Assembly (NCBI GenBank): GCA_964658305.1
Contig: OZ210886.1
Span: forward strand, 744,001-808,000
Direction of reading: 5' to 3'
Length of the DNA stretch: 64,000 nt
Source: Leptogorgia sarmentosa
Lineage: Eukaryota
The notes below the pieces were generated by a model that searched no databases, was not told the DNA's origin, and was given only the letters and a program-made list of their open reading frames with translations. How positions within the stretch are numbered: the first letter of the stretch is position 1; each line of letters starts with the position of its first letter. Of the stretch, positions 18,401 through 24,161 are shown in pieces. The translations under genes were made by a program, and so were the position numbers.

Positions 18401-20186
18401 ATGCTGCTATTTCTAGTTTACTTACTGTCCTCGTGCTTGCTCTTTTTCTTGTTTAATTTTTTGACTTTTTGTTCCAGTCGTCAATGTTATGATTGCGTTC
18501 TTTTTTTTTTATTCTTCTTTTTTCCGCTGTGGTTTTGATGATTCTTGCGGTTCTTATGTATATATGATTTTTCTTTCTATTCTTATACATATTGTTTTTC
18601 TTAGGCAAACTGGGGTTCTTCGACACAAGCCGTTACTTACCGTACAATACTGGCAATGAGTTATCAATACAATGAAGCAGAAGACCATGTGAAGAATTTC
18701 CGTCCTCAGTGTCTTGTATTGTGTGGATCTCCTGAGAGACATGGAGAGCTCGTTCATTTGGTGTCACATGTTACCAGGAGTAATGGATTGATGGTCTGTG
18801 GTGAAGTATCGAGCATGGAGTCAACTGGTAGTAAACAAAGTGATCATAAGAAATCTTCAGATTGGCTTCGTGTGAATAAAATAAAGTCATTTCACTGCAT
18901 TTGCTCAGGTATATGAACCTTATAATGGTCAATTTAAGCAGTTGATGTGCGGTTTTGAAAGCCTGTCATAGCTTGGATTTTTCCTTGCTACTCTGGGACC
19001 AGTTGGTCAAAAGCCAGATAGTTTAAACCCCTAAGTTTAAACAACTTAGTTGTAAAAGTTTGTTTCATGAATTTAGGAACAACATGCAGGCCCCTGGTTT
19101 GAAGTAACACTGGATGAATTTATTTCTTAGTAGTTATTAGACCTTTAGGTTAAAATTAGTCCAACTATCCGGTATAAAAATGTTTTGGTTCAGAATGGGG
19201 ATTGGAACAAGGGTAATTCCACTCTTCATGACTTTTCTTAATGTTTTGTGCGCATTCAACTATCTGCGTACGTGCTTTTGGTGTCCGTTTTATAGAGATT
19301 CAAGTATTGAATAGAATCGTAATACTTTTTCTACTTTTTGTTTTTTCTAGCTCCTGACTTTCGTTCCGGCGTGAGCAGTTTACTTCAATGTACTGGACTT
19401 GGAAAAATGAAACCAAATACCGTCTTCATTGGCTTCAAAACAAACTGGAGAGATGGGCTAAACACGAGCGAAGAAATAAACGAAGATGTACAAGAAGGTG
19501 GAAACGATCTAATACAAACAGACCTTGGGAACAATTTTGAAGATTCAAAAACAACCAAGAACTATGTGAATGTTATCCAAGACGCATTTGATCAACAGTT
19601 GGGTGTGGCCATTTTCAGATCCAATTTTGACGAAACAGATAATGAAAATAGAGCATTGCGTATTTTGAACGAGAAGCGTGAGGGAAACATTGACATTTGG
19701 TGGTTGTTTGATGATGGTGGTCTCACTGTGCTCATCCCGTATTTATTGAGTCTTAATCGCTTTTGGAAGAAGTGTAAGGTGCGAGTATTCACTCCGAAAT
19801 CTACTCAGAAAGAGAGCGAGATATCGGCCAATAAAATTCGAATGGTAAATTTATTGAAGAAATTCCGTATTGATGTTTCATGCGTTGAAGAGTTTGATGG
19901 TTTATCCGAAAAACCGAAGGAAGATAGTATTAACGATTTTAAAAACCTTGCTGGACATGTGGTTGAAGGAGAACAAAAAAAGAGAAGCTTACGCCATATC
20001 CGGTTAGGTGAATTACTGAGGGAACATAGTAAAGATGCGAGCTTAATTGTGATGACATTACCTGTACCCAGCGAAGCAATTGAGCCCACGATGTACATGA
20101 GTTGGTTAGAGATGATGACCAAAGATTTACCTCCTATCTTGTTGATTCGTGGCAATCATACCAACGTACTGACTTTCTATACATAG
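15441..20186 (+). CDS. SLC12 NKCC-like cotransporter, tandem copy 3, about 959 aa
   Basis: Six exons: 15441-15746, 16610-16877, 17055-17728, 17870-18361, 18605-18908, 19351-20186 (2880 nt, intact frame). Closest overall to copy 2. Confidence 0.93.
16316..16379. mobile_element. Degenerate MITE, CAACCTCGTACCCAGG family
   Basis: caacctcgtacccaggg...aggcacgaggttg. Flanks aattggttc / acctggttc match at 7 of 9. Confidence 0.65.
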
Positions 20187-20427
20187 AAATATAAATTGGT
20201 TAAAAGAGTCTAGAAAAACATCTATCTTTTCAAGAATAAGAAAACTTGCAACATACAAGTTTTTTTCAGTTAAAATATAAATACAATATAGCAGAGTGTA
20301 ATAGAACGTGAAATGTAACTTTTTGCGAATTATATTAATGAAATTTCAGGTTCTGCAGGAATTCAATTTGTATGTCAATGTTCGATATTTATACTGGAAT
20401 CGATAGGGAGTCAGTGAGAGCAACTCA

Positions 20428-20513
20428 CAACCTCGTACCCAGGGCCTTTTCCCTTTTTGAAATTAGGGCGGTGCCCTAGTTTCAAAAAGGAAAAGGCCCT
20501 GGGTACGAGGTTG
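20428..20513. mobile_element. Palindromic MITE, CAACCTCGTACCCAGG family
   Basis: Near-perfect 86-bp inverted repeat. Flanking 9-mers agcaactca / agcaactcc match at 8 of 9 positions. Confidence 0.8.
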
Positions 20514-20615: not shown

Positions 20616-20631
20616 CTTCTTTCCTTTCTTT
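20616..20631 (+). promoter_or_regulatory. Candidate TCT/5'-TOP polypyrimidine transcription start of NACA
   Basis: cttctttcctttcttt lies about 200 nt upstream of the NACA ATG. It is followed by a plausible 5'-UTR donor (tag|gtttgt, about 20690) and acceptor (gaag|caaac, about 20807). TOP starts are typical of translation-machinery and snoRNA-host genes. Confidence 0.45.
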
Positions 20632-20822
20632 GCCGAAGTTTGACTACCAGAAATATTTACTGGTGGTGCGAAGATCCTTCTGAATCGTAGGTTTGTATAG
20701 CTTTTTCGTTTTACACAAGTTTACATACATGTAGGGATAGAACATTTTCGAATACTAAGAATGTTCTTTTTTCAAATTTGCTAAAGTGTAAAGGGTAATT
20801 TTTGAAGCAAACGGACCAAAGA

Positions 20823-23663
20823 ATGACAGCCCCAGCCGTGGAGAAACCTGCCGCGGAGGAAAATGAAGGTGACGCCTTGTTATTAAATGTTGTATGTTAA
20901 ATGAAATATTGTCATCGAGAATTGTTAACATTTATTGTACCTTATATTATCTGTCACAGTATGCCATTACTGTAAACTCGACTACCAACTCTGTTTATTA
21001 TAAAGTGGAATAATCAACAGGTTTATATAAAAGCCAAGGGGTACATTATAAGATTTCAGAATATCTGCTAGTTGCTCTTATCGGCCATTTACATCCATTG
21101 TAATGCTGGATAAGCGGAAGGGTCTGTATTTTATGCTAGCTAAACATGTGTAAAATCTCCCCCTAATATAAGAACTGAATGAGCACAATATCGTTTTCTT
21201 TGATGAAGAAGACAACAATAATTAGTATTAAGTATGCCTTTCACAGATTACCAGTTAGTCTGTGAATTTGTTTTGGCTTTTGAAAGTTCCCAAGATGTTG
21301 TGATGTGATAGGTTAGAGATATTATATTTGTGAAGGTCATAAAGGGGGGGGGGGGGGGGTCCTAATTACATTTCCCTGTCAAGAATTGTGACATATTCCA
21401 TATTTGCTCAAAATGGCTTTTTCCTATTGTTCTAGTGAGAAGAAATATTTGGAGAATGTCTGTATTTTGAATAGTATTTCAAAGTTTTCATTTCTTTAAA
21501 TTTTCTCAGCTGGTTCTGGTACAGAAAGTGACAGTGATGATGACCTTCCTGAGTTGGAAGAAGCACAAGGTAGAGGCCCGAGCGAAAATTTCAGTGAAGT
21601 AGCTGCAGCTGCTGGTGTTCCAGAAGAATCTGTGAGCAGAGCAAGACAAAGTCGCAGTGAAAAGAAAGCTCGCAAAGCAGTTCAAAAACTTGGTCTGAAA
21701 GCCATCACAGGTGTTACTCGGGTAGCAATTAGAAAATCCAAGAATATCTTATTTGTGATTGCAAAACCTGATGTCTACAAAAATCCAAATGGTGATACAT
21801 ATATTGTATTTGGTGAGGCTAAGGTAACTACAATGTTCATTTCATTCAATAATTGTAAAATTTTGGCAAGAAGTAATTTTGTCTGCATTTATGTTCTGAT
21901 GAAAGTAGCATTGTTGATTTATGTTTATTTAGATTGAAGATCTCACTCAAACTGAACAAATGAGGGTAAGGATCTAAAAACATATGTAAGAGTCCCAATG
22001 TGCTCGATGATTAAAACATCTCCAATGAGGGGAGTCCAGTTATGTGCACAGGCTGTTCACCATTTACCCCTTGTGTATTTGTAAATATATTTGTTTGAGT
22101 AATATGTCTCCCACCCTGGTTTACAGCATGTGCAACTGGAAGTGGCCTGATGAATTTTAAGATTATGAGATATGAGAGCACTTAGCTTGAATTTTAATAT
22201 TTTAACAATATGTGTGGTAGACCGTTTTCCAAGGACCTTTTGATAGGTTCATGTGGTTGTATATTTGACATGTTAAAACAACATCACTTGGTAAAAGGTG
22301 CAATAAACAGTATTACTATAGGATGGCTTACATGGCTATATTAAAAATAGGCTGCAAAGAAATTTGAGGCAACAGAAAAGTTGATGTCAGAAATCAGTGA
22401 AGTCAAAGAAGCAGCCGAACAAGAGGAGAGTGATGATGAAGAGGTAATGGCAAATTTTTTATCAAACCTTTCTGCTTGTTAGCTTTGCACAGCTAAAAAA
22501 AATTGAGCCTGCAGTATAAGAACAGCTGAACAGGATAATTAAAAATGTTTTGCTGTTCATAGCTGTCAATATTGTTGGTCCTAAGCATTGGTAGAAATGC
22601 TTAGCAACATCACAACCCTGAACAATTGATATGGGCAGCAAAAGCTTATTCAATTCTACTTTTATCAACATTGCAACAAGTTGAAGATTTTTTGAAATCT
22701 TTTATCAACGTCATACAACATGAAAAATGAGCTTTTTATAACATATGTAAAAATTTCTTGTGCTCAATGATTAAAATCTGAAATATAGAGGGATTGTTCT
22801 ACTATGCTTTTCTCTTTTCTTTCGCTTATACCTGTTTGTAACTTTGTTTTGTTGATGTATGTTGTGTACAGTATGTTTGTAAAATTTGTATTTGTTGTTG
22901 TCTGTGTGAGTGAAGAGTATGCATAGTAGGAAGTGGCCCAATGATTCAAAGATTATGAGATATGAGAGCACTTTATTATTTTGCATGACATTTAGAGTGT
23001 AACCTGTTTTATATATAATTTGTTAGTTGTACATTTTACGTCTTGCATCACATGCACCACCCCTAAATGATAAAATGTGCATCAAGCAAAGGCTCTCCAT
23101 CTGCAAGTAGTGGTACTGTAATCACTATGTACTATTTCCTGACCAAGGAATTTTGCTCGAAACGTTGAATTCTGTTTTAGCATTGTTTAGGTAGAAAGTA
23201 TAACTTGTAAACCGTTCTCTATACATATCAATATGTGTTGAGATGGTTAACGTCCGTTGCTTGTCAAGTTTCCCAAACAACAAGAATTTTATCACAATAC
23301 GCAATAAACTTATAAAAGCATTGCAAGAACTGAAAGGTTTCTATTTTGTGTCGTACGCAGGTTGATGAAACTGGAGTAGAGACAAAAGATGTCGAACTTG
23401 TAGTGCAACAGGCAAGCGTATCAAGAGCAAAGGTAAATATATCAGGTTACCAAATTGATCTCTGCACAGTGTCTGGCATTTTTAACAAAGCATTTTTAAA
23501 AATTGTTCTTTTAGGCTGTAAAAGCTTTGAAAAGCAACAATAACGATATCGTCAATGCTATAATGGTTGGTATTAAAACAAAATCTTCAATTCTTTCAAT
23601 TTCATGGAAATATACAAAATTTTTACTGTTTGCACTTTCATTCATTAGGCACTGACAATGTGA
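20823..23663 (+). CDS. NACA: Nascent polypeptide-associated complex subunit alpha
   Basis: Exons 20823-20868, 21510-21823, 21933-21965, 22351-22443, 23361-23432, 23515-23565, 23649-23663. Translation includes [57 protein letters not shown] and the UBA-like end [45 protein letters not shown]. Confidence 0.96.
22000..22181 (+). ncRNA. Intronic box C/D guide RNA, SNORD97-like, copy A; predicted guide for 2'-O-methylation of tRNA-Met(CAU) C34
   Basis: Terminal stem gtgctc/gagcac. Box C variant ATGATTA at 22007-22013, C' TGATGA at 22148-22153, guide AGATTATGAGAT at 22160-22171, box D variant ATGA at 22172-22175. Internal stem tccagtt..tgcaca..gctgt / acagc..tgtgca.aactgga. Located in NACA intron 21966-22350. 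Confidence 0.85.
22760..22971 (+). ncRNA. Intronic box C/D guide RNA, SNORD97/SCARNA97-like, copy B, with long UG-rich insert
   Basis: Same gtgctc/gagcac stem, ATGATTA box C and identical 3' block AAGATTATGAGATATGAGAGCAC as copy A. Internal stem ctactatgc/gcatagtag encloses about 110 nt of U/UG-rich sequence. Located in NACA intron 22444-23360. Confidence 0.85.
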
Positions 23664-24100: not shown

Positions 24101-24161
24101 CCACTGAGCTATAAGAATACTAGTAATTTAGTAATTAAAGAATTTTAGTATAGCTCAGTGG
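24101..24161. repeat. Short inverted repeat (MITE-like)
   Basis: 13-bp perfect arms ccactgagctata / tatagctcagtgg around an AT-rich spacer. Confidence 0.55.

Follow-up and report, generated by a model that had tools for sequence, protein, structure and literature searches.

A pair of predicted box C/D guide RNAs aimed at tRNA-Met C34 in consecutive NACA introns of a likely octocoral

Two human box C/D guide RNAs are tied to the 2′-O-methylation of wobble C34 in elongator tRNA-Met (Cm34), namely SNORD97 (Rfam RF01291), in intron 13 of EIF4G2, and SCARNA97/SNORD133, 216 nt long and in intron 10 of LARP4 (PMC6601510). A preliminary description of the locus studied here had named the same two human hosts. 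Cm34 is lost in human SNORD97/SCARNA97 knockouts and guards tRNA-Met against stress cleavage in human cells (PMC6601510). The guide of this family covaries with tRNA-Met from archaea to humans, archaeal homologues of the Met C34 guide are reported, and in human D97 the D′ guide also pairs with the tRNA D arm (Gm22) (PMC10576143). Fish carry both guides within LARP4 introns, the authors place the duplication behind the human pair early in vertebrates, and Vitali and Kiss present one SNORD97/SCARNA97 candidate each for Drosophila, silkworm, bee, Arabidopsis, rape and Ciona (PMC6601510, Fig. S3C). With homologues already published for insects, Ciona and plants, and with both guides in one gene in fish, the surprise that the preliminary description attached to finding two such guides in one host gene of a probably non-bilaterian animal is not supported. 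Among the titles and abstracts found in searches of a largely open-access literature, none concerns a cnidarian homologue or NACA as its host.

Here we analyze a 64-kb stretch of DNA, called the window throughout, in which the gene for NACA carries two such elements, copies A and B. Their main features are as follows.

20823..23663, plus strand: host gene NACA (nascent polypeptide-associated complex alpha), 207 aa, open frame with GT-AG introns
20823-20868, 21510-21823, 21933-21965, 22351-22443, 23361-23432, 23515-23565 and 23649-23663, plus strand: the seven NACA coding exons
21966-22350, plus strand: NACA intron 3 (numbered from the start codon), containing copy A
21979..21989, plus strand: 11-nt word preceding copy A, with a second occurrence at 22740-22750 ahead of copy B
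22000..22181, plus strand: copy A, predicted box C/D guide RNA of 182 nt (anatomy, profile match, NACA intron 3)
Parts of copy A, plus strand: terminal stem 22000-22005/22176-22181, box C 22007-22013, D′ 22025-22028, long stem 22035-22062/22117-22140, C′ GA at 22152, box D 22172-22175
22160..22171, plus strand: antisense guide of copy A, 12 nt, the fifth base from box D (22167) opposite tRNA-Met C34
22444-23360, plus strand: NACA intron 4, containing copy B
22760..22971, plus strand: copy B, predicted box C/D guide RNA of 212 nt (anatomy, profile match, NACA intron 4)
Parts of copy B, plus strand: terminal stem 22760-22765/22966-22971, box C 22767-22773, D′ 22786-22789, long stem 22797-22816/22913-22931, C′ 22941-22947, box D 22962-22965
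22846..22885, plus strand: UG-rich apical hairpin of copy B, a candidate Cajal-body signal, 15 predicted pairs of which 5 are G-U, -3.9 kcal/mol
22950..22961, plus strand: antisense guide of copy B, 12 nt, identical to that of copy A, the fifth base from box D (22957) opposite C34

The placement of the two elements in consecutive NACA introns on the plus strand, as first described, is correct. Database matches to the window NACA carry Pfam PF01849. The whole protein is 88% identical to NACA of Dendronephthya gigantea and 67% identical to that of Porites; among the best 120 of 3706 matches, a window exon reaches 90% identity to D. gigantea and at most 75% to named hexacorals or bilaterians. The window sequence and Dendronephthya stand together at 100/100 in a NACA protein tree of 15 rows, and the animal, earlier called probably non-bilaterian, very likely belongs with the octocorals, a placement that has this one gene as its basis. 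Both copies lie on the sense strand of their protein-coding host, with 34 nt of intron 3 preceding copy A and 316 nt of intron 4 preceding copy B, while intron 2, of 109 nt, is without a guide. A possible third copy in intron 1 (GAGCAC at 21181) was rejected, as it has no profile match.

The surroundings of the host gene hold a few further features. A pyrimidine tract at 20616-20633 upstream of NACA is followed by a likely untranslated exon with a 5′ splice site near 20688, a layout that we take to resemble a 5′TOP start, common in snoRNA hosts. An inverted repeat at 20428-20513, with 30-nt arms that are 97% complementary and spaced by 26 nt, is presumably a miniature transposon; it lies between NACA and an SLC12-like gene, to which we assign 19500-20187 as what is presumably the 3′ end of a long coding exon reading like a cation-chloride cotransporter (SLC12). 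Downstream of NACA, 24101-24161 forms an imperfect 30-nt inverted repeat (73%).

The anatomy of the two copies agrees with the first account, in that the 6-bp terminal stem, the box C variant ATGATTA (22007, 22767), GGAAGTGGCC (22138, 22929) and the 3′ block are all present. On both strands of the window, GGAAGTGGCC and the 17-nt word made of guide plus box D each occur at these two places only, and the 3′ end common to A and B measures 25 nt, against 14 nt for the longest common word in 100 resampled intron pairs. The two copies share one layout, in which the D′ box follows box C after 11-12 nt and a 3-bp stem comes next; an internal loop, with a conserved purine-rich block as its 3′ strand, then leads to a long stem that carries a low-complexity loop, and C′, guide and box D come last. 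In both, the terminal kink-turn has 6/6 stem pairs, a 3-nt bulge, tandem GA, and U-U and U-A pairs, and a U at position 6 of box C pairs with the A that opens box D, the same variant as in the Rfam SNORD97 consensus. An internal C′/D′ motif with tandem GA, a 3-nt bulge and a 3-bp closing stem is present in each, but is modest evidence in either copy alone, since 28 and 42 of 500 shuffles do as well. The internal stems had been described as unlike in sequence and still paired, and this is so: the arms of A and B self-pair at -30.2 and -29.0 kcal/mol, values equalled by 1 and 0 of 500 shuffles, while the crossed arms are weaker at -20.9 and -8.6 kcal/mol. Over the whole RNA, copy B folds exceptionally well (z -3.07), and copy A does not fold clearly better than its shuffles (z -1.56, 14 of 200 as good; z -0.9 for the interior).

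Pairing was assessed against the anticodon arm of elongator tRNA-Met from other animals, which is invariant over 13 nt in 18/18 animal rows and over 11 nt in 20/20 rows (PMC6601510, supplementary Fig. S4); the 64-kb window itself contains no tRNA gene. All 12 guide positions pair with this arm, and the D+5 position falls on C34. The 12-nt duplex first proposed stands in length and register; it consists of 11 Watson-Crick pairs and one G-U pair beside box D. The guide is letter for letter that of the SNORD97 consensus in Rfam. Box anatomy, guide register and the profile matches given below support the original assignment of A and B to box C/D guides of the SNORD97/SCARNA97 kind, predicted to be aimed at tRNA-Met C34.

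Searches with the Rfam models gave no match at gathering score anywhere in the window. The RF01291 model (142 positions) has a gathering threshold of 45 bits, and copy A reaches 27.3 bits (E 0.085) as the top weak match and copy B 17.5 bits (E 1.2), over its 3′ part only and as its sole match; a significant hit with this covariance model, proposed earlier as a check, was therefore not obtained, and as the threshold is not reached, A and B are not filed under RF01291 in the strict sense. The other seven of the eight Rfam E-value matches near NACA were weak and were taken as chance. Both ends of A and B nevertheless agree with the SNORD97 consensus, down to its unusual variants of boxes C and D. 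With nhmmer and a profile of 10 independent metagenome homologues, copy A matches over its full length at E 1.4e-11 and copy B at E 8.2e-9, and nothing else in the 64-kb window does at E 5; when the profile stops short of the search word, A and B still rank first and second in 64 kb by their 5′ ends, weakly (E 0.012 and 0.029). These tests are partly circular, because the homologues were found with a word from the window and chosen by patterns designed after the window had been seen, and their results concern primary sequence only. Rfam lists only 4 of the 10 homologues at all, at 31.7-35.1 bits, below the gathering score; its SNORD97 model misses such members. Taken together, the two elements are a real, well-formed pair of predicted tRNA-Met C34 guides in an octocoral.

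The homologues come from a scan of metagenome contigs with the guide word, which covered at least 120 of an estimated 230 loci. A script sought box C and the terminal stem in 120 metagenome and 13 viral loci, 27 were inspected by eye and 11 kept, and the final set is 10 of the 120, as L118 was rejected after Rfam had put its guide-like word in large-subunit rRNA (L118 is still part of alignment A2 and its profile search, and is left out of A4 and A5). None of the 13 viral matches has a box C upstream, and these serve as a picture of chance matches. Across the window copies and homologues, the internal kink-turn has a closing stem of at least 3 pairs in 9 of 12 sequences (13-101 of 500 shuffles each), and the basal stem is better than shuffles in 11 of 12 (at most 18/500). 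The pair between box C and box D is U-A in both window copies and G-C in L022, L049, L056 and L101; its covariation is loose, as 5 of the 10 homologues have a U-C mismatch. RNAalifold on MAFFT alignments recovers the terminal stem alone, because the interiors do not align. What the comparison set appears to have in common is an internal kink-turn, a long stem of free sequence and a low-complexity loop.

From 137 frame pieces of the 10 loci, hosts could be named as CHD1/2 (L044, with a CHD exon that is equally close, at 72-81% identity, to many animals and so does not place its lineage), a CCT chaperonin (L049), a DEAD-box helicase (L065) and a DUF913 protein (L094), and no host was found for L047, L056, L058, L101 and L115; the guide thus appears to move among housekeeping hosts. 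Among the matches listed, no second guide copy was seen in the fetched loci, L022 covering 253 nt of the next intron. L049:326-496 and L101:295-466 are two distinct homologues with ends alike, on contigs named with one and the same assembly prefix; they may come from one further animal that has two copies or from two species. A weak SNORA35-like H/ACA match (27.7 bits) lies at L049:2167-2287, in another intron of the same CCT host.

The D′ side sets some of these sequences apart from the window. Against the tRNA-Met D arm it scores -2.2 and -1.9 kcal/mol in A and B and -12.7 for L047 and L058, and A and B are therefore predicted to be single-site guides. Both window copies have lost a D′ tRNA guide that L047 and L058 keep almost letter for letter. 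In L047:47-303 and L058:900-1156, this D′ guide is nearly the vertebrate SNORD97 one, box D is canonical and a long pyrimidine-rich loop resembles that of SCARNA97; a SNORD27/SNORD121A-like RNA (below gathering score) follows about 250-340 nt downstream in both. These two loci may show an ancestral two-guide state.

One homologue, L022, bears on the age of the association with NACA. Its host is a NACA gene with 85-90% identity to stony corals, with which it groups in the tree (80/86), and its source is likely a stony coral. The L022 guide sits in the intron that matches window NACA intron 2, one intron further upstream. On this evidence NACA was likely already the host before the two coral groups split, and the guide, to judge by these sequences, apparently stays in NACA across the octocoral-hexacoral split and has likely moved between neighbouring NACA introns since. 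That split lies more than 500 million years back. The upstream layout of the L022 NACA gene is similar to the pyrimidine tract and untranslated exon of the window. The variable loops of copy A and the L022 guide have an 11-nt word in common (22078-22088; 4 of 300 shuffles), only a hint, whose 7-nt core occurs twice in copy B; it is a possible protein-binding motif.

The origin of the pair can be approached from its ends. There A and B differ at 1 of 37 positions, and each differs from the 10 homologues at 4-10 of 37, so that they are each other's nearest rows; in the RNA tree, 0 of 9 inner branches are starred and no supported branch joins A and B. Their interiors are 57% identical at best. 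An 11-nt word recurs 21 and 20 nt upstream of the starts of A and B (0 of 2000 shuffles), and this contradicts the earlier view of the two introns as otherwise unrelated; it is a likely trace of a duplication that carried some flank along. In the 40 nt that precede the L022 guide, this word does not occur. Local duplication in octocorals is the likely and simplest reading of the pair on this comparison, resting on alike ends and one flank word, which gene conversion could produce as well. The one-to-one correspondence with the human pair that the preliminary description implied, with A as the SNORD97 and B as the SCARNA97 orthologue, is rejected on the same end counts: being mutually closest, A and B are likely local duplicates rather than separate orthologues.

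Set beside the described systems, A and B resemble SNORD97 in the terminal stem, the variants of boxes C and D and the entire D guide, all of which fit the Rfam consensus, and also in being intronic and on the sense strand, in the same predicted target C34, in the internal closing stem and in a C′ that precedes the guide. They differ in being 40 and 70 nt longer than the model, in scoring below its gathering threshold and in having NACA as host, and they differ from SNORD97 proper in that the human D′ guide for the tRNA D arm (Gm22) is not found in them. With SCARNA97 they have in common the guide, a comparable length (216 nt against 212 for copy B), a long low-complexity interior and a diverged D′ guide. 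Box D is canonical there, as read from the probe in the paper (PMC6601510), and variant in A and B; and instead of a 93-nt pyrimidine tract, copy B has a 40-nt stretch with at most 82% pyrimidine followed by UG-rich sequence. A pyrimidine-rich Cajal-body signal of about 90 nt is in neither copy, the interiors being 54-55% pyrimidine and the best 40 nt 68% (A) and 82% (B). Copy B is like the vertebrate C/D scaRNAs U90 and mgU2-47 (PMC4041459) in its long apical hairpin topped by UG-rich sequence, and unlike them in lacking a long run of consecutive wobble pairs and in its predicted target, a tRNA and not an snRNA. The insect, Ciona, plant and archaeal guides, which we compare by their published descriptions, are likewise non-vertebrate and have the invariant antisense element; the present locus differs from them in holding two copies in one gene, and in a cnidarian.

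We consider that A and B are likely intron-encoded box C/D guides, that they would be cut from NACA introns and direct fibrillarin to tRNA-Met C34, and that they likely came from an octocoral-local duplication, a reading to which we give a probability of roughly 0.85. By analogy with the family, each RNA would be released from the spliced NACA intron by exonucleolytic trimming and would assemble with 15.5K, Nop56, Nop58 and fibrillarin, which would 2′-O-methylate the wobble C34 of elongator tRNA-Met; Cm34 would in turn shield the anticodon loop against cleavage. Having two copies, largely redundant as they would be, would raise the guide dose from a highly expressed host. To our knowledge, angiogenin, the human nuclease of stress cleavage, is vertebrate-specific.

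An alternative with a small but real chance of being right is that A and B are divided as the vertebrate pair is, independently of it, with B sent to Cajal bodies by a G-U wobble hairpin, A nucleolar, and both needed for full Cm34. This would refine the explanation preferred above and is compatible with it. The UG/GU density of copy B is the maximum of the window: 15 steps per 30 nt are reached by 2 of 399 tiles, both overlapping copy B, whose fold has 12 G-U pairs, against 10 steps and 2 such pairs in copy A. Vertebrate C/D scaRNAs carry a GU-repeat stem atop the apical hairpin (PMC4041459), and in humans, too, the nucleolar guide is the shorter one (142 positions in the Rfam model against 216 nt for SCARNA97). 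However, four other tiles of the window reach 14 steps, the longest strict purine-U alternation in B is 8 nt, its hairpin is weak at -3.9 kcal/mol, with 5 of 15 pairs G-U and at most 2 of these consecutive, and copy A also has a small alternating hairpin (2 of 7 pairs G-U), while SCARNA97 itself has a 93-nt pyrimidine tract and no GU repeats (PMC6601510). L022 equals B in UG-richness, and the trait could therefore be no more than an ancestral one of corals, which argues against the division. That soft corals, after a duplication within NACA, evolved a two-compartment pair for the same tRNA base independently of vertebrates, B keeping an ancestral UG-rich Cajal-body signal and A losing it and becoming nucleolar, is just as speculative; if true, the G-U wobble Cajal-body signal would predate bilaterians and serve a tRNA guide.

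We regard it as rather improbable that a single copy is active while the other decays, as a recent duplicate or with ends kept alike by gene conversion. The target is redundant, and copy A, whose length falls 30 nt short of B and 28 nt short of L022 and whose fold is less distinct, begins just 34 nt from the 5′ splice site; but interiors of at most 57% identity stand together with intact boxes, guide and kink-turns, and each copy has its own compensated stem, a pattern of selection on both. Less probable again is that the true target is another RNA or a wider set of tRNAs, while a stand-alone Trm7/FTSJ1-type enzyme makes Cm34 of tRNA-Met. In humans, Leu-CAA and other tRNAs are bound by D97/D133 as well (PMC10576143), and FTSJ1-type enzymes modify anticodon loops in Drosophila (PMC13228274, the consulted portion of which does not mention SNORD97); against this, the consensus guide found here letter for letter covaries with tRNA-Met from archaea to humans (PMC10576143). 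An origin of the elements as chance or repeat-derived intron sequence is scarcely conceivable, even with Rfam silent at gathering score and with chance occurrences of the 17-nt word, which account for the 13 viral loci and for most of the 120 metagenome ones. The complete box anatomy, the full-length profile matches (E 1e-11 and 8e-9), the first and second rank of the 5′ ends with the shortened profile, the 25-nt common end and the stem energies against shuffles refute it, along with the occurrence of a homologue in NACA of a second coral and the want of an upstream box C in all 13 viral matches.

What is new here is modest, and consists of a cnidarian record, an apparently old NACA host link, and in copy B a UG-rich hairpin that resembles a Cajal-body signal. 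The record supplies the missing cnidarian example of the RNA-guided tRNA modification that is best studied in eukaryotes. The two duplicates, with their unequal UG-rich hairpins, form a natural setting in which to test the human division between nucleolar and Cajal-body guides, and given the protection from stress cleavage in human cells, the modification is a candidate for coral stress studies.
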